Source: a virus (taxonomy: Duplodnaviria; Heunggongvirae; Uroviricota; Caudoviricetes). Taken from it: a stretch of DNA of 64,000 nt. The position numbers were made by a program, and so were the translations under genes. The notes beneath the pieces were generated by a model that was not told the origin of the DNA, ran no database searches, and worked only from the letters and a program-made list of their open reading frames with translations. Each line of letters opens with the position of its first letter. Within the stretch, counting starts at the first letter, position 1. This document shows positions 9,523-64,000 of this stretch, one piece after another. The stretch is taken from the IMG/VR virus record IMGVR_UViG_3300028887_000066, positions 243,550 through 307,549 of that record; one strand, written 5' to 3'.

Positions 9523-9534
9523 CTATGATATTAG

Positions 9535-9616
9535 ACTCCGTAGTTGGATTTGAACCAACGTGTGCAACGCAAATGGTTTTGCAGACCATCCCTATCGACC
9601 CCTCAGGCATACGGAG
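9535..9616 (-). tRNA. tRNA, type II-like (13-nt variable arm), apparent anticodon GCA (Cys)
   Basis: Manual fold: acceptor CTCCGTA/TACGGAG, anticodon stem ATGGT/ACCAT with loop CTGCAAA, variable arm TTGCGTTGCACAC, T-arm GTTGG-TTCAAAT-CCAAC. Confidence 0.55.
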
Positions 9617-10035
9617 GTAAAAATTCTAAAACATTACGTTTCATTCGGCGAAACCGTATAACGCTTGTTTTTAATGAACAAGTGATGAAACTTATCCGAC
9701 GTATCGGAAAGGACAAACCATTTGTACGTTTTCCATCAGCCGTAACGCTTTAGGAGGATTTCCTGGTAATCTTGCTCGGTTTCATTAAGCATCCTCGGGC
9801 CCAACTACATTCCCTATTCCACCTTTACCGTCTACACCGTGGTCAAATGGAAAAAACCACGATATGCTTCTCTCTTAACGTCTTTTCTAGGATAGACCTG
9901 AGTTTTTCGAACCGCTCCTCCTGCATCTGTCCTGATATGTTTGACAGCACCCATATAAAACTTCGGAGGAGGCAAACTATATAAATATACGCACTCCCTA
10001 GAACACCTACACTGATGTTGTGTAGCCCTATCGTG

Positions 10036-10107
10036 CGGCCTATGCAGGGATCGAACCCGCGACGTTTCCTTTTAGGGAGGACTGCTCTGCCACTGAGCTA
10101 ATAGACC
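10036..10107 (-). tRNA. candidate amber suppressor tRNA (anticodon CUA)
   Basis: Manual fold: acceptor GGTCTAT/ATAGGCC, D-arm GCTC-AGTGGCA-GAGC, anticodon stem GTCCT/AGGAA with loop CCCTAAA (positions 34-36 = CTA, A37), T-arm GCGGG-TTCGATC-CCTGC. C33 instead of U33 is atypical. Confidence 0.5.
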
Positions 10108-10147
10108 TTTCAATTAGGGAGCATTGTATCTCCCCGATTGTTTTTGC

Positions 10148-10185
10148 ATTGCAAAGATAAGGCATTTTATTGGAATGGCCAAATT
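10148..10185 (-). promoter_or_regulatory. Bacteroidetes-type promoter (TTTGGCCAT..20 nt..TATCTTTG) reading leftward into the suppressor tRNA
   Basis: caaagata (10151-10158) and tggccaaa (10176-10183) on plus = -7 and -33 on the minus strand. Confidence 0.65.
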
Positions 10186-10204
10186 TCTTTGCAAAAATGT
10201 TCAT

Positions 10205-10531
10205 TCAAAGAATTTCGACTACTTTTCCGTAGATGTTATTCCGACTTATTACCCCATTGGCGTGACCGTGATTGTTGCCGATCAAATACCTGTCACCAGG
10301 TTTTACCGACCATATCAAATGAAGATAATAGTGTCCGTTCACCTTACATAGTACAATATCGCGTTTCTTTAATTCAGTAGCATCATTCACGGGAATACAA
10401 ATTACAGGCTGCTTTGATTTCAGAATAGGCAACATACTATTACCTATACCAGTGATTTTAGCTACTTTCCCCTGTCTTAATGCTTCAGCGGAATACTTAT
10501 TCTCAAACCCTTCATATTCAACATTCCACAT
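10205..10531 (-). CDS. S24-family (LexA/UmuD-like) serine peptidase domain protein, no DNA-binding domain
   Basis: GNSMLP (Ser nucleophile motif) and a downstream Lys (LCKVNG); 108 aa standalone catalytic domain. Confidence 0.6.
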   Translation of the reverse strand: MWNVEYEGFENKYSAEALRQGKVAKITGIGNSMLPILKSKQPVICIPVNDATELKKRDIVLCKVNGHYYLHLIWSVKPGDRYLIGNNHGHANGVISRNNIYGKVVEIL

Positions 10532-11192
10532 AATCTAAGGTTTTAATCAAGTGCCACAATGACATTATACTTTCAACGTAGTTTTTCTTTTGTGTTTCCA
10601 TACTGTATGTATCACCCGTACCACCGTGTGTAGAGCCAAAATTGAATTTTATCTCCTCAGGCTTTCCGTAATCTGGATTTTTCGGATTTTCATTCTCATT
10701 ATGCAAGAATTCACGATACTCATTCTTAGTGCAGGTTTTATAGGCGTAACAATACTCATTATGACTTAAAAGATACAGTGTGTGTTCCGACACTTGCTTG
10801 TAGATGTCTTTTTTGTCCCTGTTTTTTCTGTCATAACAGTAGATGGATATAGGCATATCGTTATTTTCTTCATAACTTTGATATGTTCCGAAACGACCAT
10901 TACGCTCTTTTAGCACTTTCTGAAATGTGTCCCTTTTTCTTACAACAAAGTCGTCATCACTATAATTTAGAACATTCTTAAATGGCTCTAATTCTGAATA
11001 AAAAGTATTTGAGTACCCTCTGTTCTTCAGCATTTTTTCGCACTTATTAACCTGTTCTGTGATGTACTTCAATGCTTCATCCTCACTGAGGTTGTGCTTT
11101 ATACAGTAATAAACTACATGTGTGTGGTGATATACGTCCCACTTTCTCTCGGTCATCCAATTTTTCAGGAAAATATAACTATTGTTTTTCAT
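10518..11192 (-). CDS. hypothetical protein (224 aa)
   Basis: ORF. Confidence 0.6.
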   Translation of the reverse strand: MKNNSYIFLKNWMTERKWDVYHHTHVVYYCIKHNLSEDEALKYITEQVNKCEKMLKNRGYSNTFYSELEPFKNVLNYSDDDFVVRKRDTFQKVLKERNGRFGTYQSYEENNDMPISIYCYDRKNRDKKDIYKQVSEHTLYLLSHNEYCYAYKTCTKNEYREFLHNENENPKNPDYGKPEEIKFNFGSTHGGTGDTYSMETQKKNYVESIMSLWHLIKTLDYVEC

Positions 11193-11421
11193 AATTTTAA
11201 TCGTATTTGTAAAAAGTAATTATTGTTTTTAATGTGTGATCAATTTTTAACTGAAAAATCAATCGAAAAAAGCAAAATCCCATTTCAAAATACGATTATC
11301 GGATAACCACGGATTTTAGTAACCTACCATTTCTGTCTTTTCATAAATTCAGACGTTTTTTAATTAATGATTATTTTCTTTAGAATTAACATTACAAATA
11401 TACAAATCGTTTTGCATATTG

Positions 11422-11493
11422 TAGGCCGCGCAGGGGTCGAACCTGCCATCTTCTGATCCAGAGTCAGACGTGTTACCACTACACCAGCAGCCT
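11422..11493 (-). tRNA. tRNA-Gln (anticodon CUG)
   Basis: Manual fold: acceptor AGGCTGC/GCGGCCT, D-stem GTGT/ACAC, anticodon stem TCTGA/TCAGA, loop CTCTGGA, T-arm GCAGG-TTCGACC-CCTGC. Confidence 0.8.
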
Positions 11494-11503
11494 GTTTATT
11501 GAG

Positions 11504-11577
11504 TAGGGACGAAGAGGGTCAAACTCTTACCTTTTGGTTCAAAGCCAAATGTGCAGAAGTCGCTACACCACATCCCT
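11504..11577 (-). tRNA. tRNA-Gln (anticodon UUG), atypical D-loop
   Basis: Acceptor AGGGATG/CGTCCCT, anticodon stem TTTGG/CCAAA with loop CTTTGAA, T-arm AAGAG-TTTGACC-CTCTT; the D-loop lacks GG. Confidence 0.5.
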
Positions 11578-11719
11578 ATAAAATACTACGGATAAAATAT
11601 ATGACTTACCTCGGCGGGCCGCATACTCGACCACTTCACCACCTACCAGATCTGTCCTCGTTTAGTATGATAAGAGAGTATGGCAACTTATAATCAAATA
11701 TATTGATCAGTAGTATTAG

Positions 11720-11792
11720 TACGCCTAACAGGATTCGAACCCGTATAAAACACTTTAGAAGAGTGTTGCCTAATCCATTCGGCCACAGGCGC
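11720..11792 (-). tRNA. tRNA-Arg (anticodon UCU)
   Basis: Anticodon stem ACACT/AGTGT, loop CTTCTAA, T-arm ACGGG-TTCGAAT-CCTGT, acceptor GCGCCTG/TAGGCGT. Confidence 0.75.
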
Positions 11793-11798
11793 GTTTTG

Positions 11799-11870
11799 TA
11801 CCCCGACCCAGAATCGAACTGGAAACTAAATCTTAGGAGGATTTTGTTATATCCATTTAACTATCAGGGC
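11799..11870 (-). tRNA. tRNA-Arg (anticodon CCU)
   Basis: D-stem GTTA/TAAC, anticodon stem AAATC/GATTT, loop CTCCTAA, T-arm TCCAG-TTCGATT-CTGGG. Confidence 0.7.
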
Positions 11871-11885
11871 TTTAACATTGTTTAG

Positions 11886-11972
11886 TAGCGCGTATGGGAT
11901 TCGAACCCATGAGGGCGTTTTATGCCCACTACATTGAAAGTGTAGCGACCTAGACCACTAGTCCAACGCGCC
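11886..11972 (-). tRNA. tRNA with Glu anticodon UUC but an 18-nt stem-loop variable arm (type II architecture)
   Basis: Acceptor GGCGCGT/ACGCGCT, anticodon stem CTACA/TGTAG with loop CTTTCAA, variable arm TGGGCATAAAACGCCCTC (GGGC/GCCC stem), T-arm ATGGG-TTCGAAT-CCCAT. Confidence 0.55.
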
Positions 11973-11980
11973 ATATATTG

Positions 11981-12054
11981 TAGCGGTAGCGAGGCTCAAA
12001 CTCGCAATCTCCACATTGAGAGTGTGGTGACTTAATCAGTTCGTCTATACCGCC
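11981..12054 (-). tRNA. tRNA-Glu (anticodon CUC)
   Basis: Acceptor GGCGGTA/TACCGCT, anticodon stem CCACA/TGTGG with loop CTCTCAA, T-arm GCGAG-TTTGAGC-CTCGC. Confidence 0.65.
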
Positions 12055-23248: not shown

Positions 23249-24359
23249 TAATCGGTATTTCGTATGTAGAAATGTTATCCTCTACAATATAATTCTCATT
23301 GATGCTTGTTACAACATGCGGGTTAGCAAGATAACTGTCAATAGGACGCTTGATTTTTTTATAGTAAAGGAAATTCTCAGGATGCATAACATCCATATAT
23401 GTGCGGTATACCATAATACCAATATCTTCTGCCGTGCGAGTCTCCTTATATTTTTCTTGCCTATCAAAACCGTAGTCATCAATATTGAATTTCTTTTCCA
23501 ATTTGAGTGCGAGTTCAACCCGTTGTTCTGGCGTATCAATCGGAACACCATTTTCCACTTCACATTTAACGGCCTTTGCTATATCCTCATAATAGACATT
23601 ATGACTATAGTCACGCACCCAAGAATCAAAATATTCAATATATTGTTCCTTACCGTCGAAATTAACCTTACACCATTTATGTGCCTTTGAGTCAAAACAG
23701 TTAGCCAGATCTTCCCAACAAAAATATGATTCGAAATCACTTGCATAATAATAACTGTTTTTGTGTGATTCCTCGCTGCTCCATTCACTTATGAATTTAA
23801 TTTCGCCATTTTCAAGAACAGGCTCTATATTTGTAAAACCACGAAGAGTCTTTATGTTAGTAACATTCCTGTCTTTCAAAAAACGCATCAGTAAATCAAT
23901 GGGGTCGAACAAATCCTGTAGATGCAAATCACAATGGAAATTCATATGCCCCCAATTTAAACGGTCAAATATTTCCCGCCTAATATCTTTGGCGATAAAA
24001 TCTTTTCTGTTCTGACTTAATCGGTTATAACCGTGTGTTGCGATTTCGCCTGAATGCATTGCAGCATATGTATGACGGCCAAGCCCATAATGGAATGACA
24101 ACCATATAAGATCATCTACCTTAGATGTCGGCAATACTTTTAATGGGGCAGACTTCTTACGACGTTTCTTCAAAAACTCCCTGAACTCAGCGACTAATTG
24201 ATGATATTCCTCAGAGTCAAAATCTACATTGAAATATTCGTCTTCTCGTTCATTTTTCAACCCTATTGCATATCGATACGACATCCATACTAAATCTTCC
24301 GCATACATGTCGTCAAAATCATTCTTTTTCTTCTTAGTCATTATTTTCTGTTTTTTCAA
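23238..24359 (-). CDS. hypothetical protein (373 aa)
   Basis: Long ORF. Confidence 0.6.
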   Translation of the reverse strand: MKKQKIMTKKKKNDFDDMYAEDLVWMSYRYAIGLKNEREDEYFNVDFDSEEYHQLVAEFREFLKKRRKKSAPLKVLPTSKVDDLIWLSFHYGLGRHTYAAMHSGEIATHGYNRLSQNRKDFIAKDIRREIFDRLNWGHMNFHCDLHLQDLFDPIDLLMRFLKDRNVTNIKTLRGFTNIEPVLENGEIKFISEWSSEESHKNSYYYASDFESYFCWEDLANCFDSKAHKWCKVNFDGKEQYIEYFDSWVRDYSHNVYYEDIAKAVKCEVENGVPIDTPEQRVELALKLEKKFNIDDYGFDRQEKYKETRTAEDIGIMVYRTYMDVMHPENFLYYKKIKRPIDSYLANPHVVTSINENYIVEDNISTYEIPINEG

Positions 24360-24822
24360 CGATGACCAATGCGTGTCTTATAATCTCCCCGTTCATCTTA
24401 TAACCCACTTTATATATGTTAGAAATGCAATTATCGGAAACATCGCCACTGTTTGAGGTGGATACGGCATTATGTATGTCAGGATTGAATTCATCGCCGA
24501 TAGAGCCATATGCTTCGACTCCACATTCTTTCAGTACATTAAATAATTTACTGTAAATCAACTTTATACCTTCACCGTCTGACCCCATTTTATGTGCCAT
24601 TTCACAATCATCGATGACAGTAATTAAAGATAAGATTATTTCTTTTCCTGCCGTATTCCGTATGGTTTCAATTTCCTTCGCCTTTCTCTTCTTGTAGTTA
24701 TCAAATTCGGCTAAAAGCCTAACATACATATCTTGGTAGTCAGGCTGCTTAACCTCTTCATCATTAACTATAACAGGCTGCTCATTTTCAACAGGCATGT
24801 TATTCAACATTGTCTTTAGCAT
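24334..24822 (-). CDS. grpE: GrpE nucleotide-exchange factor
   Basis: LLAEFDNYKKRKAKE .. DEFNPDIHNAV .. GYKMNGEIIRHALVIV align with GrpE's AEFENYRKR and FDP..HEAV..GY..R..RPA.V motifs. Confidence 0.8.
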   Translation of the reverse strand: MLKTMLNNMPVENEQPVIVNDEEVKQPDYQDMYVRLLAEFDNYKKRKAKEIETIRNTAGKEIILSLITVIDDCEMAHKMGSDGEGIKLIYSKLFNVLKECGVEAYGSIGDEFNPDIHNAVSTSNSGDVSDNCISNIYKVGYKMNGEIIRHALVIVEKTENND

Positions 24823-26172: not shown

Positions 26173-26514
26173 CTATTCACGCTGATTATAATTCTTTTCT
26201 ACGTATTCCCACAATTTTTCATCTGTTGAAAGGTCTATGGGTGTACCGTCCTTTTCCCAAGCAAAATATTCCTTTTCTTCATTTCCGCTTTTCTTGCTCT
26301 TCTCCAACAGACGAGGAGCATCATACAACGCCCACGAAATCCAATCCCATCCATCTTCTCCGTAGGCTTCTGTAAATGCCAATGCCTGCAACGCCCAATA
26401 TGACTTGCACAATTCAGTGTCAATAATGTCAATTCCGAGCTTTCTCAATGTTTCAATATCATTATCCGTTTTGCGGATAGTATCAAGCACCTCTTTGAAT
26501 TTCTCTAATTTCAT
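26173..26514 (-). CDS. hypothetical protein (113 aa)
   Basis: ORF. Confidence 0.5.
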   Translation of the reverse strand: MKLEKFKEVLDTIRKTDNDIETLRKLGIDIIDTELCKSYWALQALAFTEAYGEDGWDWISWALYDAPRLLEKSKKSGNEEKEYFAWEKDGTPIDLSTDEKLWEYVEKNYNQRE

Positions 26515-27026
26515 GCCTTAATATATTTAGTATCTACAAACTTAGTGAGCCAAACTCCATTGTTACTCAAATAAAACTTGTTTCCGTCGTTATGCATCGT
26601 TTTTGCGTCAATTACCAATACAATTGGCTTACCGTGCCTCTTTCCTACATTAATGGCAGTATCCGCATCAGCGGACAAATGTACATGCAGCCTTGTTCCG
26701 CTGTTTATTCCGCTTTTCATAATGGAATCCAAAAAACGTGTAGCCGTACCGTGATATAATGTATCAGGAGGTGTCATTTCCTTCAATTCCACATTAACTT
26801 CCACACTATGCCCTTGTCTTGCACGGATATATTTTCTGTCTTCAGAATACTCAAATCGTTTTTTGTTGTTAGTTTCAACGATTTCATCAAGTATTTCAGG
26901 TGTATAGCCGTGATTTCTTAACAAATCATCAACCTCACGCCAACCATGCTCGTCAAATTTATACTCTTTATCGTGTCTGAGAAGAAAAGCTAATTCCTTA
27001 CCTTTTTCAATTACTATATTTTTCAT
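26511..27026 (-). CDS. kptA: RNA 2'-phosphotransferase (Tpt1/KptA family)
   Basis: LRHDKEYKFDEHGW..KKRFEYS..IRARQGHSVEV..LYHGTATRFLDSI..RLHVHLSADADTAINVGKRHGKPIVLVIDA..GVWLT match Tpt1 conserved blocks. Confidence 0.85.
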   Translation of the reverse strand: MKNIVIEKGKELAFLLRHDKEYKFDEHGWREVDDLLRNHGYTPEILDEIVETNNKKRFEYSEDRKYIRARQGHSVEVNVELKEMTPPDTLYHGTATRFLDSIMKSGINSGTRLHVHLSADADTAINVGKRHGKPIVLVIDAKTMHNDGNKFYLSNNGVWLTKFVDTKYIKA

Positions 27027-28502: not shown

Positions 28503-30635
28503 TCAATCCAATTTCTCCAAAACAGTTCCTATAACAGTCCTAACCCCTAAGTCAAATTTTACAGTATATGACTTATTTTTTTCATTATAATGTATTATTT
28601 CACCAGTTCCAAAAAACTTATGCTTTACCATATCACCAACAGACAATTCATCATTCGCCTCAGAAAAACTGATTTTCCCAAACCTGTTTTTACCAAATTT
28701 ATCCTTTGGTTGGTTTAATTTTGTGATTAATTCATCATCTATCTCTTCAAGAAAACGCGACGGCTCTTTGTCTCTTTTAGTTATGAAATTAAATCCTCCC
28801 GACTCACTTAAATACAGTTTATCCATTGCGCGAGTTACAGCTACATAGAATATACGTCGTTCCTCTTCCAAGCCATCTGCCTGCATTTCTCTCATGGCTC
28901 TCGAATTTGGGAAAATACCTTCATTAAGCCCACAGACGAATACCACAGGAAATTCAAGCCCCTTACTTTGATGAATTGTCATCAGTTTTATTGCATCCGT
29001 ATCTGAGGTTTTGTCCATGTTAGTAAACAATGACATATCCTGCAAATACCTGTCAAGCCCTAAATCTTCCTCATGTTCATTTGATTTCTCATAATCTTTT
29101 ACCGATGAAATCAATTCGCCTATATTCTCAATACGTTCTTCATCTGAATCATTGGAATACAGTTTCTTCAAACCACTTTTATCCAGGACTTCAGAAAGTA
29201 TATCAGAAATATGCTTTTTGTCTTTATACGCTCTACCCCATTCAATAAGTTCAACGAATTTGACAATCTGCTCCTTGTTAAACTCCTTGTCTTTAATATG
29301 TTTCTTCAAAGATTCATACATTGTTGTTTTTTCTTTTTGGGAAAGTATTTTTAGTTTTTCCAACGAAACTTTGCCAAACTTCCTTGACGGTACATTAATA
29401 ATACGGCTAAACGCTATATCATCACCATTTGCGATAACACGCAAATATGACATCACATCCTTAATTTCCTTTCTATCATAAAACCTTACTCCACCCCATA
29501 TAATATATGGTATATTGGATTTTAACAGTTCCTGTTCTATTGGCCTTGACAAATATGATGCCCTGTACAACACCGCAAAATCAGTATTTTTCCTTTTATC
29601 TGATTTTTTTAACTTGTTTATTTCTTTCAGAATCCATGATGCCTCGTCCTGATCAGTATAGGCATGATAGTAAACAGGTAGTTCACCATCCTTTCTTTCC
29701 GTAACCAAATTTTTCTTTAATTGCCTCTCATTATTTTTGATTACACAATTCGCAACATCAAGAATCGGTTTTGTTGAGCGATAATTCTGATTTAATACAA
29801 CGTCTTTTTTACTTTTGAAATCTACGAACATCTGAGGCTTACTACCCCTGAACCCATATATGCTCTGACAATCGTCACCGACACAGAATATATTTCCACT
29901 TGCTTTTCCTAACAAATTTATAAGTTTCCAATCGACGGCATTGCAATCCTGCGTCTCATCTACCATTATGTATTGGAAAAACGACCATCTGTCATATGCA
30001 TCTTTATATTTCTGCAAAACATAGAGTCCGAAAAATATTAGATCATCAAAATCAAGATAATATGACTTACGTTGCTCTATAATATATTTTATAACAGGGT
30101 CGTTACTGTTCATTGTGTCCTTATCCATTACAATGTCGCCTATATAAGATGATTTTGACTTATATTCAGCCACTTTTTCCAATAACTGATATTCTGTCAT
30201 GTCGTCTTTGTCAATATGCAACTCATCCATCACCTTTTTAGCCATATCCTTTGAATCTATCTCATCTAGGATAATGAAATTTTTAGGATACCCTAAATGA
30301 TATATTTCGTTTCTTAGAATTTTGACACAGAGGCTATGAATGGTACATATAAAATCCGTGGCAACATCAGAATCAATGAGTTTTGAAACTCTATTCTTCA
30401 TTTCTTGTGCGGCTTTATTCGTAAAAGTTATGCACAATACATTAGCGGGTGATACCCCAAGGTTCTGTATTATATGGGCATATCTTGAAACAAGGGTCTT
30501 GGTTTTCCCTGCTCCAGCCCCTGCAATTGCCCGAACCTTACCTTCTGTGGCGTTTACGGCCTCTTTTTGCCTGTTATTGAGACCATTAAAAATGCCATCT
30601 GATTTGTTATTGCTATTCCGTTTCATTTTTCCCAA
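28503..30635 (-). CDS. UvrD/PcrA/Rep-family superfamily 1 DNA helicase
   Basis: LNNRQKEAV..AGAGAGKTKTLVSRYAHII (Walker A), later Q/III/IV/V/VI helicase motifs, 710 aa. Confidence 0.9.
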   Translation of the reverse strand: MGKMKRNSNNKSDGIFNGLNNRQKEAVNATEGKVRAIAGAGAGKTKTLVSRYAHIIQNLGVSPANVLCITFTNKAAQEMKNRVSKLIDSDVATDFICTIHSLCVKILRNEIYHLGYPKNFIILDEIDSKDMAKKVMDELHIDKDDMTEYQLLEKVAEYKSKSSYIGDIVMDKDTMNSNDPVIKYIIEQRKSYYLDFDDLIFFGLYVLQKYKDAYDRWSFFQYIMVDETQDCNAVDWKLINLLGKASGNIFCVGDDCQSIYGFRGSKPQMFVDFKSKKDVVLNQNYRSTKPILDVANCVIKNNERQLKKNLVTERKDGELPVYYHAYTDQDEASWILKEINKLKKSDKRKNTDFAVLYRASYLSRPIEQELLKSNIPYIIWGGVRFYDRKEIKDVMSYLRVIANGDDIAFSRIINVPSRKFGKVSLEKLKILSQKEKTTMYESLKKHIKDKEFNKEQIVKFVELIEWGRAYKDKKHISDILSEVLDKSGLKKLYSNDSDEERIENIGELISSVKDYEKSNEHEEDLGLDRYLQDMSLFTNMDKTSDTDAIKLMTIHQSKGLEFPVVFVCGLNEGIFPNSRAMREMQADGLEEERRIFYVAVTRAMDKLYLSESGGFNFITKRDKEPSRFLEEIDDELITKLNQPKDKFGKNRFGKISFSEANDELSVGDMVKHKFFGTGEIIHYNEKNKSYTVKFDLGVRTVIGTVLEKLD

Positions 30636-45753: not shown

Positions 45754-47628
45754 TTAAACCTCTTCTGCTTTCTGAGTACCCCCTGTAAATCCTGAGAAAA
45801 TATCATTCAGGGGATTTCCATCACCTTGTGGATTACTTCCTTGATACATCTTCTGGGTAATCGGATACCAAGTTTGCTCAAGCTCTTTCTGACAAGTTTC
45901 TACAAGACTGACATCTTTTGCCTCAATCGCCTTCTTTAAAGCCTCAATCTTTGGTGTAAGAGTGTTCTTATCATCATCGGTAAGTTTATCACCCATTTCC
46001 TCCATAGATTTTTCAATAGCAAAAATCAAACCGTCAGCATTGTTTAGTTTATCGGCGTTTTCCTTCTTTTTTCTGTCAGCCTCCGCATTTGCCTCTGCTT
46101 CAGCTTTCATACGCTCGATTTCTTCATCGGTAATACTGCTTTTTGATTCAATAGTGATATGCTGTTCCTTATTAGTCGCTTTATCAACAGCAGTTACACT
46201 CAAAACCCCATTAACATCCATATCAAAAGTGACTTCAATCTGAGGCACACCTTTTCTTGCGGGAGCAATCCCATCAAGATTAAAAATACCTATTGTTTTG
46301 TTGTCTACGGCCATTGGACGATTGCCTTGTAGTACCTTTATTTGTACACCTGGCTGATTATCCTGTGCTGTACTGAAAGTTTGTGATTTTTTGGTAGGTA
46401 TCGTTGTATTAGCCTCAATGATGTTCGTCATAACACCCCCTATTGTCTCGATGCCTAAATTCAATGGTGTCACATCAAGTAACAAAACATCCTTATTATC
46501 ACCAGCGATAATTGAACCTTGAACCGCAGCACCAAGAGCTACAATCTCATCAGGATTGACATTTTTAATAAGCTGAACCCCAAATTCCTTCGTGAGCATT
46601 TCCTGAACATAAGGAATTCGTGTAGAACCACCTACGAGAATAATACCAGTAAGTTCATTCGCCATAATGCCTGAATTTGATAAAGCTGTTTTACCACAAC
46701 CTATAACCTTTTTGATTTCATTTGAAATGAGTTTTTCAAATTTGGCACGTGTAACACTGATATTCAAATGCTGTGGAACCCCGTCTTTAGCGGTAATGTA
46801 TGGAATATTAATATCTGTTGTGGTACTATTTGAAAGCTCCATTTTAGCTTTTTCAGCGGCCTCCACGACACGTGTCATTGCCATAGGATCAACAGAAAGG
46901 TCGATACCTGTATCACTTTTAAATGAATTAACAATGTCGTCACACAAAAGCTTAGTAAGGTCTGAACCTCCACAATACACATCACCATACGAACTCAATA
47001 TCTCAACAACACCATCAGAAATGTCGGCAATGGAGAAATCCAATGTTGAGCCACCGTAATCGGCAACCATATATTTACCACCTTTAGCCATATCAATGCC
47101 AGAAGCAAGAATTGCCGCTGTAGGTTCTGCGACGATACGACGTACATTTAGTCCAGCAATTTGACCAGCTTTAATGGTGGCTTCACGTGCTTCATTATCG
47201 AACATAGCAGGTACGGTAATAACAGCCTCTGTAACCTCCTCCCCAAGATAATCTTCTGCTGTCTTCTTTAATTTTTGAAGTATCATTGCGGAAATTTCTT
47301 CAGGGGAATACTCCCTATCACCAATTGCAATTCTTGGGTAGCCATTAACGTTTTTCACATCATACTCAATATGAGCGAAATTGTCTTTTACATTCTCATA
47401 AGTACCACCCATGAAACGTTTAATAAGAACTACTGTATTCTTGGGGTTGGTGATTGCTTGACGTTGTGCCGAAGCCCCGACCTTGCGTGTTCCGTCTTTA
47501 TCAAAAAATACTACAGACGGAGTTGTCCTATTTCCTTCATCATTGACAATAATCACTGGGCTATTACCCTCCATTACAGAGACTTCGCTAAGGGTACTAC
47601 CCAAATCAATTCCAATAATCTTTCCCAT
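45754..47628 (-). CDS. dnaK: Hsp70 chaperone DnaK
   Basis: [18 protein letters not shown] .. [11 protein letters not shown] .. full-length 624 aa with a C-terminal EEV-like tail. Confidence 0.95.
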
Positions 47629-59983: not shown

Positions 59984-60181
59984 TTAATTTTGTTTATTGT
60001 TAAATTTTTCACATATCTCTCCAAAAGGTAAATTCCATATATCAGTGTTACTTAATAGCCATTCACATATTTCGTGGGAGTATTTTGAATCACCAAATGT
60101 ATGAATAATATCATAGCACAAATCAAAGTTTATACCATATTTGACACAATATTGCACTGTGATTTCATTATAGCCATTCAT
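59984..60181 (-). CDS. hypothetical small protein (65 aa)
   Basis: ORF. Confidence 0.4.
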   Translation of the reverse strand: MNGYNEITVQYCVKYGINFDLCYDIIHTFGDSKYSHEICEWLLSNTDIWNLPFGEICEKFNNKQN

Positions 60182-61044
60182 AGTTTTTTCTGTATTTCAC
60201 GCACATAATCAATGTGTTCCTGAGACATTGGGACACCTGTGAAATTCACATGCAAGAATGCCTCAATTACGTCCTCATCGGTAGTTCCCTCTTCCATTTC
60301 ACCATAAGTAAGCACCTGACTGTTTCTGAAAAGATGCTGTGCGCGATCGGATAAATCAGAATAGTAGTTTCCGTGCATATCCTGGAATTTATCATTAACA
60401 AAGTCAATTATACACCCAAGACGCTGTTTTCCATCGACCACATCAAAGAAACCAACCTCTGAATTTCCATTCTTACACTGTTCCTCCACATACTTAAATG
60501 AACGTTTACGAAGAAGTACCATTCCACAATTTATGGATTGATAAACACTTTCAATGAATAACTGCTTATCTTTCAGTGTCCAACAGAAATCACGCTGATA
60601 GTATAGCTTCTCACCGTTTTTCAAAACATATGGGTTAAAATTACATTCACATGGGCAAATTCCGTTAATTTCGTACTTTTCAGCCTTTCTTCCGACACGG
60701 CCTGATGCCCCAATAAAAAGCATAATACCCTCAAGGTCATAATTGGTGGTGCGAATACGTCTATTCCAAGCCCTATCAGGAAACGGATTAGCCCCAACAT
60801 TAAACAATGAACGTTCAATCTGTGTCTTATCAAGAATAATATCATTAACTTTCCAATAGTCATGAGTTTTCCAATTCACGACAAATTTCCCATCAGGTAA
60901 TATCTTCTTAATGGTGATGTATTCTTTACGGTCAGGATCTCTCGCCAAATCGTCAAGAAAACCACACTTTGTAGTGGCTTCATCACCGACTTTCCATTCT
61001 TTTTCAAGAAATGCCTTAACCATTTCATCTTTCTTCTTTGCCAT
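60178..61044 (-). CDS. DUF262/ParB-like nuclease domain protein (DGQQR-type motif VVDGKQRLG)
   Basis: VVDGKQRLGCIIDF in the C-terminal half; start refined to Met at 61044 because the promoter lies at 61075-61112. Confidence 0.5.
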   Translation of the reverse strand: MAKKKDEMVKAFLEKEWKVGDEATTKCGFLDDLARDPDRKEYITIKKILPDGKFVVNWKTHDYWKVNDIILDKTQIERSLFNVGANPFPDRAWNRRIRTTNYDLEGIMLFIGASGRVGRKAEKYEINGICPCECNFNPYVLKNGEKLYYQRDFCWTLKDKQLFIESVYQSINCGMVLLRKRSFKYVEEQCKNGNSEVGFFDVVDGKQRLGCIIDFVNDKFQDMHGNYYSDLSDRAQHLFRNSQVLTYGEMEEGTTDEDVIEAFLHVNFTGVPMSQEHIDYVREIQKKL

Positions 61045-61074
61045 AACGCTGAACTTGTTTTTCTTTTGATTACA

Positions 61075-61112
61075 ATGCAAAGATAAGGCTTTTTCCCCAA
61101 TTAGCCAAATAA
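61075..61112 (-). promoter_or_regulatory. Bacteroidetes-type promoter (TTTGGCTAA..20 nt..TATCTTTG)
   Basis: caaagata 61078-61085 and tagccaaa 61102-61109. Confidence 0.6.
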
Positions 61113-61113
61113 T

Positions 61114-61626
61114 TCACTTTTTTTCATATGTTGTCTCGTTATAGGCTTTAATAGCCCTATCCACATCGTACCATTGTGGATGTTCTTTAACTTCTTGAAT
61201 AATGTTTTCAAAAATTTTACCATCAACATCAAGCCTACCTCCCTGCCACCATGATTGGATGTCCATAGAAAACCATCCACCATCGTTTTTAGTTCTAACA
61301 AACCAAAGATTATTGTCATCATATACTGGACAAGAACATTCTACAAAATAATCCGTTTCGGTCTCATAAAGCCAATCATGGTTTGGCATTTCGTCATTAT
61401 GCCAATGATCATATAATGATACAAGATTATATATCGGATTATCCTGTGTACATTCATCGTCAGGTACTGTAACCATTATAGATTTTGCTTCTTCGGGTGT
61501 TACAATTCTTTCACACTTGCAAATATAATGCCTTGACGGGCTTGTTTTGCCATCATCAAAGAAATGATAAAATTCACCTACTTTTGGGGTTGGTTTTAGC
61601 TCAATATTCTTATTTTCCATATACAC
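61114..61626 (-). CDS. hypothetical protein (170 aa)
   Basis: ORF. Confidence 0.55.
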   Translation of the reverse strand: MYMENKNIELKPTPKVGEFYHFFDDGKTSPSRHYICKCERIVTPEEAKSIMVTVPDDECTQDNPIYNLVSLYDHWHNDEMPNHDWLYETETDYFVECSCPVYDDNNLWFVRTKNDGGWFSMDIQSWWQGGRLDVDGKIFENIIQEVKEHPQWYDVDRAIKAYNETTYEKK

Positions 61627-61631
61627 TAATT

Positions 61632-62075
61632 TTATTTTAGCAATTCAGGATTATCGTACATGTTTCCCTCTACAACGGCATCCATTTCATCAAGCCACTT
61701 TTGATCAATAGTCTGCCAAATATCCCAAGACTCATCCAACTCAAAAACATTAGCCATCTTGAAACCTCCCTTATTGGGAAGATATTTTACGATTTTCAAC
61801 AACTTTTGCCCGTCGCTTAATACAACGGAAATAATATCCCCGTCATATATCTTAACGAAATTTTTATCAGTTAGCTCCGATAGCATTCCAACTGTGTCAC
61901 TTAACACTTCATATTTTAACCCTGTATTGGTAATAATTACGCCCTTGCCGTCAACTCCCACAATTGGCTGATAATAGCCATAACAAAATGAAAACGAACC
62001 ATCATTATTAGCATAGACGAATTTGCCTCTTACGGTGGGTATGAATTTTTTAAATATATCTGTACTTTTCATCAC
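61632..62075 (-). CDS. hypothetical protein (147 aa)
   Basis: ORF. Confidence 0.5.
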   Translation of the reverse strand: MMKSTDIFKKFIPTVRGKFVYANNDGSFSFCYGYYQPIVGVDGKGVIITNTGLKYEVLSDTVGMLSELTDKNFVKIYDGDIISVVLSDGQKLLKIVKYLPNKGGFKMANVFELDESWDIWQTIDQKWLDEMDAVVEGNMYDNPELLK

Positions 62076-62674
62076 CTGTACAATTTTTCTTCCTTGATCA
62101 AATTATCTATTTCTTTGCAAGTATAAACAGACACATCTTCACCGCTCTTTGCCATTTCCCTTATCTTGGTGGAATGTATTGTGACGGGTTCCTCTATCTT
62201 CAATGTTCCGTAATAATAATTAGAGTATCTTACGGCTTCACATATGTCGTTTCCGTCAAATAAAATTAAGAATTTATTAGACCTCAGCAACTCTTTTGAT
62301 TTAAACCACTTATCATCCAAAAGTTCCAAAAATGTCTCTTCAGTTATTATCCACCAAAATTTATGACCTATCATTTTATCCTCGCCACGAAGAAAATGAG
62401 TAATAAGGTCATAAGTATATTTTGGTCGGATAGTCGCTTCAATATCGTCAACCAACACATTCTCGGAAAGCCCAGAAAACATGTATCGGCACATCTGATA
62501 CCTTTTCCAAAAATCCAAACTTTCAGATTTATTAGGATTCTGATATGCAGGTATGATATGAATATGGTCTATCCCACAAAAATCCATCATGCCACTATTC
62601 AAAACCGCTTCAATACACTTTCTATGTCCTATATGAGGCGGATTAAAACTACCTAAGAATATTGCCCTGCTCAT
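62072..62674 (-). CDS. nicotinate/nicotinamide mononucleotide adenylyltransferase (NadD/NMNAT-like)
   Basis: LGSFNPPHIGH (HxGH nucleotidyltransferase motif) and TIHSTKIRE (ISSTxIR motif). Confidence 0.8.
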   Translation of the reverse strand: MSRAIFLGSFNPPHIGHRKCIEAVLNSGMMDFCGIDHIHIIPAYQNPNKSESLDFWKRYQMCRYMFSGLSENVLVDDIEATIRPKYTYDLITHFLRGEDKMIGHKFWWIITEETFLELLDDKWFKSKELLRSNKFLILFDGNDICEAVRYSNYYYGTLKIEEPVTIHSTKIREMAKSGEDVSVYTCKEIDNLIKEEKLYR

Positions 62675-62997
62675 CCTTCCAACATTTTATTAAGTTCATC
62701 GGCATTTCCGCACCATCCCAGCCCATTCAAACCAAGATAATACGCGCCAAGGTAAAAATCAAATGAATCCAGGTCAAACTTGTTAAGCTGTGGATGGAAT
62801 CTGTATTTAGTGTGGCATACAGGACATTCAAAAATAGCCATAAAGCCGTTATATGTTTCACACCATCCAACAAGCAACGGTTTCTCACCGTGTTTTACTC
62901 CACTGCCATTGCACTCAGGACATACGAACTCAGGGGCATATTCAATATCCTCCCACTGGCTTATCTTCGGTATAATGTCAATAACCTTCTTTTCCAT
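62671..62997 (-). CDS. small zinc-binding protein (CPEC .. CPVC)
   Basis: ORF downstream of the promoter at 63020-63057. Confidence 0.5.
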   Translation of the reverse strand: MEKKVIDIIPKISQWEDIEYAPEFVCPECNGSGVKHGEKPLLVGWCETYNGFMAIFECPVCHTKYRFHPQLNKFDLDSFDFYLGAYYLGLNGLGWCGNADELNKMLEG

Positions 62998-63019
62998 AAT
63001 TTATTTCTTTTTAATTACA

Positions 63020-63057
63020 TTGCAAATATAAGATTAATTTTTCATTTGGCCAAACTA
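63020..63057 (-). promoter_or_regulatory. Bacteroidetes-type promoter (TTTGGCCAA..20 nt..TATATTTG)
   Basis: caaatata 63023-63030 and ttggccaaa 63046-63054. Confidence 0.65.
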
Positions 63058-63106
63058 ATATACATAAAAATGAGCATTCATCCATGCGACAAATGCCCAT
63101 TTAGCC

Positions 63107-63736
63107 TTAGAAAACCGTGTACCAAATTTCAAGCAATTTTTGTTTCCATTTCGGATATGCATATTTCAATATACTCTTTTCATGTCCGAATGCCCATTCA
63201 TACTTTTTAACTTGATTTACAGGTATCCATTTAATATCCTGTACTTCATTTTTCTCTCCGCCTCTTCCATCATCCCAATCATCGAGATTAGGCCCAAGTA
63301 CATATTGGTGTTTTTTACCAAGAAATACCGTATGATGAATAGTCACATTACCGTTATTGCATTCAGAAGGTTCTGTTTGAACAAATACTGCCTTAAATCT
63401 TTCAGGTGGAATAACTTCGACGCATTCCTCCATTGTCTCGCGGGCGATCCCTTGACGTGAATTTTCATTTCTTTCAAGAAAACCACACGGACAGTTCCAA
63501 TAACCTTGAAAATCTGGAGTTCCGCTGCCACGACGATTAGCAAGGACACAATATTTACCGTTTACAACGGCATAAATAAACCCTGCCACAGCACAATACC
63601 TGCCATCATATAATGTTATTGTTTTATCCTTAGGCACGATAAAACTATCATCGTGACATTCAACGGCATTAATGTCGAATGCCTTATATGGTTTATTTCT
63701 CTCCATCATCCAATCTGTTTTAATAGATATGCACAT
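63107..63736 (-). CDS. NUDIX hydrolase
   Basis: Nudix box GFLERNENSRQGIARETMEECVEV. Confidence 0.8.
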   Translation of the reverse strand: MCISIKTDWMMERNKPYKAFDINAVECHDDSFIVPKDKTITLYDGRYCAVAGFIYAVVNGKYCVLANRRGSGTPDFQGYWNCPCGFLERNENSRQGIARETMEECVEVIPPERFKAVFVQTEPSECNNGNVTIHHTVFLGKKHQYVLGPNLDDWDDGRGGEKNEVQDIKWIPVNQVKKYEWAFGHEKSILKYAYPKWKQKLLEIWYTVF

Positions 63737-64000
63737 TTCTCCTGATTACCAAGTGTCTTGCCCCTGTCACAGGAAAGCTTTACACAGTCATGCCACTCAC
63801 GATTTTCGGTAATACGCATACCTGTAAGTTTTACCACGATATTGCTATATGGAAATTTCTCATTCGTTTCCTTATTAGTTACGTCAGCACAAAGATGTGT
63901 TCCAATGCCATAACTATCCTTCATCCGTCCACCAAGCCAATTATGAAGGTCGATAGCCTTATCGATGGTCAATGCATTACTGTACACAATAGACTTAGTA
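63706..64000 (-). CDS. partial CDS (5' end beyond window): C-terminal ~98 aa of a nicotinate/nicotinamide phosphoribosyltransferase (PF04095, Nampt/PncB family)
   Basis: SYGIGTHL .. NIVVKLTGM .. VKLSCDRGKTLGN match the family's C-terminal GIGT .. VVKL .. KLS..GK blocks. The frame is open to the window edge; the track's 63987 start is only a GTG inside the frame. Confidence 0.55.
   Translation of the reverse strand, partial: TKSIVYSNALTIDKAIDLHNWLGGRMKDSYGIGTHLCADVTNKETNEKFPYSNIVVKLTGMRITENREWHDCVKLSCDRGKTLGNQEKCAYLLKQIG

Follow-up and report, generated by a model that had tools for sequence, protein, structure and literature searches.

A jumbo-phage gene cassette predicted to salvage nicotinamide to NAD+ by the deamidating route, with a phage-restricted Nudix hydrolase as partner

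The right end of a 64,000-nucleotide stretch of Caudoviricetes DNA (IMG/VR record IMGVR_UViG_3300028887_000066, positions 243,550 to 307,549; the whole stretch is called the window below) was analysed for genes of nicotinamide adenine dinucleotide (NAD+) metabolism. According to the listing of open reading frames (ORFs), four tightly packed genes occupy window positions 62072-64000 on the minus strand. Three of them had been named in the first-pass annotation as a phosphoribosyltransferase (PRTase), a Nudix hydrolase and an adenylyltransferase, and Pfam, NCBIfam and PHROGs agreed on their presence on that strand at those coordinates. The annotation had described them as three consecutive leftward genes. 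The leftward orientation was confirmed, but the genes are not strictly consecutive, as a 108-aa ORF lies between the Nudix and the adenylyltransferase genes. The three genes, in the direction of reading, are the following.

63706-64000, minus strand: C-terminal 97 codons and stop codon of PncB (residues 311-407 of 407), recognised by Pfam NAPRTase and TIGR01514
63107-63706, minus strand: Nudix hydrolase of 199 aa, a predicted ADP-ribose pyrophosphatase, recognised by Pfam NUDIX, the Nudix box and an AlphaFold2 (AF2) model
62072-62674, minus strand: NadD-type nicotinate-mononucleotide adenylyltransferase of 200 aa, recognised by CTP_transf_like, TIGR00482, sequence motifs and an AF2 model

The truncation of the PRTase gene by the window edge had been reported correctly. 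An exact-protein look-up with NadD led to the parent sequence, the 355,767-bp JGI metagenome contig Ga0310696_10000012 (L001 in the coordinates below), of which 76 kb was covered. The reverse complement of the window was 100% identical to this contig, with 0 mismatches over all 11,929 shared nucleotides, and position x of L001 corresponds to window position 72675 - x. The remainder of the PRTase gene was located at L001 7746-8674, and the rightward extension yielded an intact ORF of 407 aa, which removed the suspicion of a pseudogene. On a single strand of the parent contig, PncA, a 56-aa ORF, NadE, PncB, Nudix, the 108-aa ORF and NadD are arranged in this order within 4.7 kb, with pncB, nadD and nadE lying within 3.8 kb. 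The GC content of the cassette was the same as that of its flanks, and a recent acquisition of the cassette from host DNA is not favoured on this ground. No match to window positions 60000-64000 was obtained with megablast among the GenBank phages.

The PncB fragment of the window matched Pfam NAPRTase (1.6e-7) and TIGR01514 (2.7e-16, 59.6 bits, model positions 308-395 of 399). The full-length protein scored 312.4 bits with TIGR01514, above the NCBIfam trusted cutoff of 269.55, and carried both domains, NAPRTase_N (PF17767, 6e-30) and PF04095 (3e-41). The nine NCBIfam models and the six PDB structures that matched all belong to nicotinate PRTases, the best solved relative being PncB of Porphyromonas gingivalis (PDB 2im5, 1e-66). 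In the NCBIfam search, no Nampt model matched the full-length PRTase at E<=0.01. In the alignment with 2im5, His225 (sequence GTMSH) falls on the His of GTHPHE. In Salmonella PncB, the conserved His that is phosphorylated for ATP coupling is His219. The profile classification between Nampt and PncB was clear, and by its sequence the PRTase is assigned to PncB, the nicotinate-specific family. Relatives were found on IMG/VR contigs of 295-412 kb.

The adenylyltransferase matched Pfam CTP_transf_like (6.5e-10) and, over its full length, TIGR00482 (6e-20). The motifs H14-I-G-H17, Y86-T-Y-D (86-89) and S168-T-K-I-R172 were all present, in agreement with the earlier description of the protein as NadD-like. 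The family profile built for NadD gave full-length matches to NadD structures only, with Bacillus subtilis NadD (1kam) at 1.6e-18 over positions 2-205. NadM was matched by this profile across the N-terminal motif only (2qjt at profile positions 3-67), and the NadM model TIGR01527 covered only residues 3-26 of the protein. The AF2 model had a mean predicted local distance difference test (pLDDT) value of 94.1. In the Foldseek search with this model, the top 34 matches were NadD-type adenylyltransferases of nicotinate mononucleotide (NaMN), 33 bacterial and one from Plasmodium, with query-normalised TM scores of 0.68-0.81 (0.76-0.79 for the five best). Judged from its sequence, the protein represents a divergent, phage-specific NadD subfamily. 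The peptide-pattern scan of IMG/VR with NadD gave no confirmed relative, while scans with PncB and with the Nudix alignment did give relatives of those proteins; NadD relatives are present on a contig bearing T4-type capsid genes. A preference of the enzyme for NaMN over nicotinamide mononucleotide (NMN) would follow from the co-located PncB and NadE only.

The Nudix hydrolase matched Pfam NUDIX (PF00293) with 4e-11. Its start was placed at 63706, since 32 homologues share the resulting N-terminus, MERNKPY; a start at 63736, giving a 209-aa form, was rejected for the same reason. The ATG at this site overlaps the stop codon of PncB by one base, which suggests translational coupling of the two genes. 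The Nudix box, tested against the consensus GX5EX7REUXEEXGU, was intact at G75-E97 (GFLERNENSRQGIARETMEECVE), with R89, E90, E93 and E94 invariant in the 32 homologues and the penultimate G of the consensus replaced by V in the window protein. The catalytic residues of both Nudix and NadD are conserved. P113, 16 residues past the box, was also invariant in the 32 homologues, and a Pro about 16-17 residues past the box is a marker of ADP-ribose pyrophosphatases (Dunn et al. 1999, reviewed in PMC5389931). The NADH-pyrophosphatase motif SQPWPFPxS was absent from the protein. The AF2 model (pLDDT 88.8) had its top Foldseek matches with the NrtR-like protein 2fml and with the Nudix domain of NrtR in complex with ADP-ribose (3gz8, root-mean-square deviation 2.5 Å); the Nudix domains of NadM-Nudix proteins (2qjt, 2r5w) also ranked high. 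Sequence, family profile and predicted structure agreed on 2fml and 3gz8 as the best solved relatives. The closest relatives, the NadM-Nudix and NrtR domains, are ADP-ribose binders with a link to NAD metabolism. In contrast to them, the cassette protein is a stand-alone Nudix of 199 aa with an intact catalytic box and with neither an NMN adenylyltransferase nor a winged-helix domain. The motifs LYDGRYCAV, WNCPCGFLE and CNNGNVT of its clade were detected almost exclusively in phages.

Two further enzymes are encoded on the parent contig past the window edge. PncA is a nicotinamidase-like protein of 200 aa that aligned over its full length with PRK11609 (8e-15) and with yeast Pnc1 (2h0r, 3e-20). 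It retains the catalytic residues D8, K99 and C153, which align with the Asp-Lys-Cys triad D8/K122/C167 of Pnc1, and the metal ligands D50, H52 and H69, which align with the metal site D51/H53/H94 of that enzyme. NadE, with 285 aa, scored 142 bits with TIGR00552 (cutoff 63.65). It contains the SGGLDS loop (S35-GGLDS-40), lacks a glutaminase domain, and has its best solved relatives among the NH3-dependent enzymes; 4xfd was matched with 2e-23 and Francisella NadE (3fiu) with 2e-15. By sequence, the protein is classified as an NH3-dependent NAD+ synthetase.

In the most probable reading, the genes at the right end of the window form the downstream half of a cassette of a jumbo phage for complete deamidating salvage of nicotinamide to NAD+, a four-step route of the Preiss-Handler type. 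The genes, their families and catalytic residues, the predicted folds and the conserved linkage of the five genes across many phages were observed, and the substrate specificities and the purpose given here are predictions. PncA would convert nicotinamide to nicotinate with the release of NH3, and PncB would join nicotinate with phosphoribosyl pyrophosphate (PRPP), coupled to ATP, to give NaMN. The NadD-type enzyme would form nicotinate adenine dinucleotide (NaAD) from NaMN and ATP, and the NH3-dependent NadE would convert NaAD, NH3 and ATP to NAD+. The Nudix hydrolase most likely would split ADP-ribose into AMP and ribose-5-phosphate, clearing the other product of NAD+-cleaving enzymes (NADases); the ribose-5-phosphate could be converted to PRPP by the host.

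The linkage of these genes was determined in other phages. With the Nudix alignment as query, IMG/VR yielded 114 viral matches; 80 loci were retained, on contigs of 14-435 kb (mostly 95-190 kb). The cassette proteins were compared with the 80 loci by tblastn, and dereplication at 90% Nudix identity resulted in 30 lineages. Of these loci, 52 carried PncA, PncB, NadE, NadD and Nudix in this very order and on the same strand, and the median span was 5.1 kb. The full five-gene set was found in 14 of the 30 lineages, partial sets such as NadE-Nudix-NadD in 6, and Nudix alone within 7 kb in 10. On two distant contigs of jumbo-phage size (468 and 474 kb), Nudix adjoins NadD, and NadE is also kept in one of them. 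The five-gene module is common in phages of 95-190 kb as well as in jumbo phages. The order at the window, PncA-x-NadE-PncB-Nudix-x-NadD, is a rearranged version of this module. Metallophos, AAA, YqeY and dNMP kinase genes were considered as core members and rejected, as they vary between phages.

The Nudix patterns were detected at only 3 places in 185,579 bacterial and archaeal species genomes (one genome per species), compared with the 114 matches in IMG/VR. Nudix is an integral and essentially phage-restricted member of the recurrent five-gene module. Two of the three bacterial places are contigs of 376 and 410 kb binned in rumen metagenome-assembled genomes (MAGs). The former (L099, JAGAYY010000025.1) is filed in a MAG labelled 'Bacilli bacterium', and the latter (L100, ONIZ01000001.1, identical to L016 of IMG/VR) as 'uncultured Firmicutes bacterium RUG343'; both probably represent phage genomes that ended up in bacterial bins. 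Within a single 90% Nudix cluster, L061, L064 and L066 differ from L060, L062 and L065 in the loss of PncA-PncB (sometimes also of NadE) with NadD-Nudix kept, which means that phages acquire or lose the upstream half of the module over short periods. In the phages with the closest PncB (75-77% identity), genes for an RNA ligase and for a CCA-adding/poly(A)-polymerase-like enzyme are scattered among PncA and PncB, and one of these phages also encodes a NADAR domain protein (7.5e-47), a member of another ADP-ribose-processing family. The positions concerned are L008 8670-9176, L007 3957-4862 and L008 3508-4455, and L007 22-1311 and L008 435-1829.

A number of observations weigh against the four-step assignment. 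For all the cassette proteins, the readings are predictions from sequence and, for NadD and Nudix, from modelled structure. PncA remained below the cutoffs (55.1 against 174 for PRK11609, and 26.3 against 27 for Pfam Isochorismatase), and NadD, with 72 bits, was below the NCBIfam trusted cutoff of TIGR00482, 112.45. The closest PncB relatives (L006-L009, 71-77% identity) have no NadE, Nudix or NadD within 6 kb, with PncA located 3-4 kb upstream of PncB; the genes are therefore often, but not always, clustered. Near-identical phages with parts of the module deleted also exist, which makes it dispensable in some settings. The substrate of the Nudix hydrolase cannot be read from the sequence, ADP-ribose being the best guess, and its Foldseek list also included Ap4A, RppH and MutT-type enzymes with slightly weaker scores. 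A different activity of this protein, such as the hydrolysis of NAD(H) or NaAD for control of the pool, the removal of NAD caps from RNA, or the degradation of immune signals derived from ADP-ribose (cyclic ADP-ribose isomers), is therefore to be considered, as Nudix specificity is hard to predict, the NAD-cap/NADH enzyme Nudt12 appeared in the same list, and a 2021 survey (PMC7824862) proposed that the NadM-fused Nudix domains of phages may hydrolyse NAD+ and so regulate its level. The best sequence and structure matches, namely NrtR with ADP-ribose, the NrtR-like protein and the ADP-ribose pyrophosphatase of NadM-Nudix, together with the invariant Pro and the absence of SQPWPFPxS, make such an activity unlikely.

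The pathway named by the first-pass annotation was of the NadV/NatV or NARP2 type (NARP, NAD+ reconstitution pathway), in which Nampt makes NMN and an NMN adenylyltransferase with a Nudix domain completes NAD+ in two steps. Pfam PF04095 covers Nampt as well, leaving the 97-aa fragment ambiguous at that level, and the cassette shares with NatV a Nudix and an HxGH adenylyltransferase. This assignment was overturned by the full-length PRTase, which passes TIGR01514, has the PncB N-terminal domain and shows no Nampt match at the threshold given above, and by the adenylyltransferase, which is NadD-type and unfused to Nudix. Moreover, PncA and NadE adjoin just past the edge and are needed only in the deamidated route, from which it follows that the pathway is the four-step one; a NARP2 cassette is accordingly very improbable. 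The general part of the annotation, that of a phage cassette for NAD+ synthesis or salvage, was retained. A Francisella-like order of steps, with NadE acting as an NMN synthetase on NaMN and the NadD-like enzyme adenylating NMN, is documented (Sorci et al. 2009, cited in PMC7824862). Both enzymes are divergent and 3fiu is among the NadE matches, but NadE is nearer to the standard NaAD-amidating enzymes, as seen with 4xfd, and the Francisella route uses NadM instead of a NadD-type enzyme; this order is considered quite unlikely. Finally, the four pathway enzymes all belong to standard bacterial families and relatives of Nudix are deposited under bacterial labels, as would be expected if the region were a bacterial chromosome or a mis-assembled host fragment with ordinary housekeeping genes. 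The sizes of those MAG contigs and the identity of one of them with an IMG/VR viral genome speak against this, as do the matching GC content and the distribution of the Nudix clade. The window itself, with 36% GC, is 93% coding, has 86 of its 100 ORFs on the minus strand, is rich in ORFans and PHROG matches, and encodes an endolysin and an array of eight tRNAs. A bacterial origin of the region is hence scarcely credible.

The likely purpose of the four-step cassette would be to keep NAD+ available during infection, both feeding the NAD+ consumers of the phage and offsetting abortive-infection defences that deplete NAD+. The same enzymes may also form a general auxiliary metabolic module which raises NAD+ for the NAD+ consumers of the phage and for host metabolism in the long infection of a jumbo phage, with no relation to NADases. 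This alternative is compatible with the four-step route and is a substantial possibility, if somewhat short of even. The RNA-repair genes of the window include the NAD+-consuming RNA 2'-phosphotransferase Tpt1/KptA, and the ATP cost of the four-step route exceeds that of NARP1 or NARP2. In addition, no recognised anti-defence gene flanks the cassette, its neighbours being YopX, a GmrSD_N/DUF262-like protein and ORFans; the description of the region as rich in counter-defence thus found no support. In contrast, the entry through PncA and the Nudix of predicted ADP-ribose type match exactly the two products of NADases, which modestly favours a defence-related role, and for three other NAD+ pathways of phages an effect against NAD+ depletion has been demonstrated (10.1101/2024.02.11.579819; PMC13464706). 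A counter-defence role is plausible as an inference, both here and in the literature. A broader proposal, put forward tentatively and held to be rather doubtful, is that PncA-PncB-NadE-NadD-Nudix constitutes a fourth phage NAD+ reconstitution pathway, which is deamidating, uses both NADase products and protects large gut phages, not only jumbo phages, from depletion of the Thoeris, SIR2 or DSR type.

The other features at the right end of the window are given below.

63021-63033, minus strand: promoter-like motif TCTTATATTTGCA, containing TAnnTTTG, in the 109-bp gap upstream of the 108-aa ORF
62671-62997, minus strand: zinc-ribbon-like ORF of 108 aa with a CxxC...CxxC pattern and sub-threshold zinc-ribbon matches only
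61632-62072, minus strand: YopX-family ORF of 146 aa (Pfam YopX, 3.8e-10)

The 108-aa ORF, which the earlier annotation did not mention, overlaps the NadD start by 4 nucleotides. Its family is small, with 8 clusters. It was rejected as a pathway component, as no homologue was found at the equivalent position in distant modules and other copies of the family have no NAD genes nearby, and it is judged to be a bystander. The start of the YopX-family ORF is overlapped by the NadD stop codon, and the ORF appears to be co-transcribed with NadD. YopX was not found beside the module in other phages and is thus not a conserved member; the same was determined for the 56-aa ORF from the other phage loci. 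A 300-aa GmrSD_N/DUF262 protein (60178-61080, minus strand; 5.7e-12; PHROG 1583, 3e-28) is encoded two genes downstream of NadD. This domain is more familiar as a part of type IV restriction enzymes.

The gap between Nudix and the 108-aa ORF, 109 bp at 62998-63106, contains one of 8 copies of the motif TCTTATNTTTGCA detected in the window with one mismatch allowed, compared with 1.3 expected. Seven of the 8 copies lie on the gene strand upstream of ORFs; the start positions are 2509, 10150, 12205, 20419, 44049, 52351, 61076 and 63021. A related motif, TATCTTTG, is located upstream of PncB on the parent contig. TAnnTTTG is the -7 element of Bacteroidota promoters, and the motif TCTTATNTTTGCA probably represents a phage promoter class built on this element. 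The motifs would fit a Bacteroidota host, although they do not prove one. The 174-nucleotide spacer between the 56-aa ORF and NadE (L001 6645-6818) is locally GC-rich and forms a strong hairpin (ACGCCCGUAGAGGUGCGGGUGU) immediately after the stop codon, which may be a terminator. The spacer, upstream of NadE, gave no Rfam match and its fold had a z of -1.1 against shuffled sequences, so that a riboswitch or small RNA was left unsupported as a candidate.

Elsewhere in the window, Hsp70/DnaK (45754-47628; 2e-109 with Escherichia coli DnaK), GrpE (24334-24822) and a UvrD-like helicase (28503-30635) are encoded, all on the minus strand, together with DNA methyltransferases, an AMP-binding enzyme with a PP-binding carrier domain, an IMPDH/GMP-reductase-like protein and an ABC ATPase. 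The Tpt1/KptA gene is located at 26511-27026 on the minus strand and matched E. coli KptA (phmmer, 7.6e-44) and Pfam PTS_2-RNA (6e-44). Tpt1 consumes NAD+ and releases nicotinamide. As the window also encodes Thg1 and an RNA ligase, the phage may possess a set of genes for RNA repair. The tRNA genes form an array at 9534-12054 on the minus strand and include Cys, two Gln, two Arg and two Glu tRNAs and one with the anticodon CTA. The latter, at 10035-10107, would be a suppressor tRNA reading the amber codon UAG. TAG ends 20 of the 100 called ORFs of the window and is therefore still in use as a stop, meaning that any stop-codon reassignment is partial or limited to other, possibly late, genes.

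Clusters of this kind have been described computationally. Li et al. 2024 (Microbiome, PMC11662467) reported 'NAD-jumbo phages', 174 in number, from the guts of ruminants and other sources of gut material. A genome of >200 kb with pncB, nadD and nadE together, as in those of these phages that have a Preiss-Handler cluster, is also seen with the present contig. The pncB-nadD-nadE clusters occurred in a clade with predicted Bacteroidota hosts, for instance in Kuafu_71, and a counter-defence role was suggested there, awaiting experiments (PMC11662467). The preprint of Osterman et al. describes NARP1 (Adps and Namat) and NARP2 (Nampt and Nmnat) and includes no PncB, NadE or nicotinate, and the surveys of phage NAD+ systems from the Aravind laboratory (one of them PMC7824862) list NadV, NadM and NadR only. 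Among isolated phages, pncB is annotated in Atu_ph07, Phosso and Xanthomonas phage X1. The literature search returned no experimental test of the deamidated route as a counter-defence and no published 'NARP4'. The novelty of the present locus is modest and consists in the completeness of the route from nicotinamide, the constant phage-restricted Nudix partner of predicted ADP-ribose type and the occurrence of the module beyond jumbo phages.

NARP1, NARP2 and NARP3 have been demonstrated experimentally, whereas the deamidating route has so far come from annotation in gut jumbo phages. The locus is a compact and complete example of it, with five genes in about 4.7 kb and all the catalytic residues intact. 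If the module defeats NADase immunity, it would extend counter-defence at the level of metabolites to gut phages of the Bacteroidota type and assign a role to the Nudix hydrolase. If it only supplies metabolism, the locus would be an ordinary auxiliary metabolic cassette.

In comparison with the known phage systems, the cassette resembles NARP2 and the NadV-NatV pair of Vibrio phage KVP40 in starting from nicotinamide, in the PRPP-dependent type II PRTase, the HxGH adenylyltransferase and a Nudix predicted to be of ADP-ribose type, and in the output of NAD+. NARP2, however, is a two-step amidated route through NMN, with Nampt, a NadM-type enzyme fused to Nudix, and neither PncA nor NadE, whereas PncB and a stand-alone NadD-type enzyme are encoded here. 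With NARP1 and NARP3 the likeness is limited to NAD+ restoration encoded by the phage. NARP1 (Adps and Namat) pyrophosphorylates ADP-ribose and joins it to nicotinamide, and NARP3 (PnuC and NadR) imports nicotinamide riboside. The components of NARP1 (a PRPS-like ADP-ribose pyrophosphokinase and a nicotinamide ADP-ribose-transferase) and those of NARP3 (PnuC and NadR) were absent among the cassette ORFs. The clusters of Li et al. 2024 are similar in pncB, nadD and nadE being clustered on phage contigs of >200 kb, and the Bacteroidota-type promoter motifs found here are consistent with the predicted hosts of the Kuafu clade. The present cassette differs from them in the additional PncA, which would allow entry from nicotinamide and not only from nicotinate, and in the dedicated phage-restricted Nudix clade, PMC11662467 containing no mention of 'Nudix'. 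With the bacterial pyridine nucleotide cycle, or Preiss-Handler pathway, it shares the PncA, PncB, NadD and NadE families and the predicted chemistry, PncB being closest to a Bacteroidota enzyme, that of P. gingivalis. The bacterial genes are usually dispersed, whereas the divergent phage genes are packed together with Nudix.

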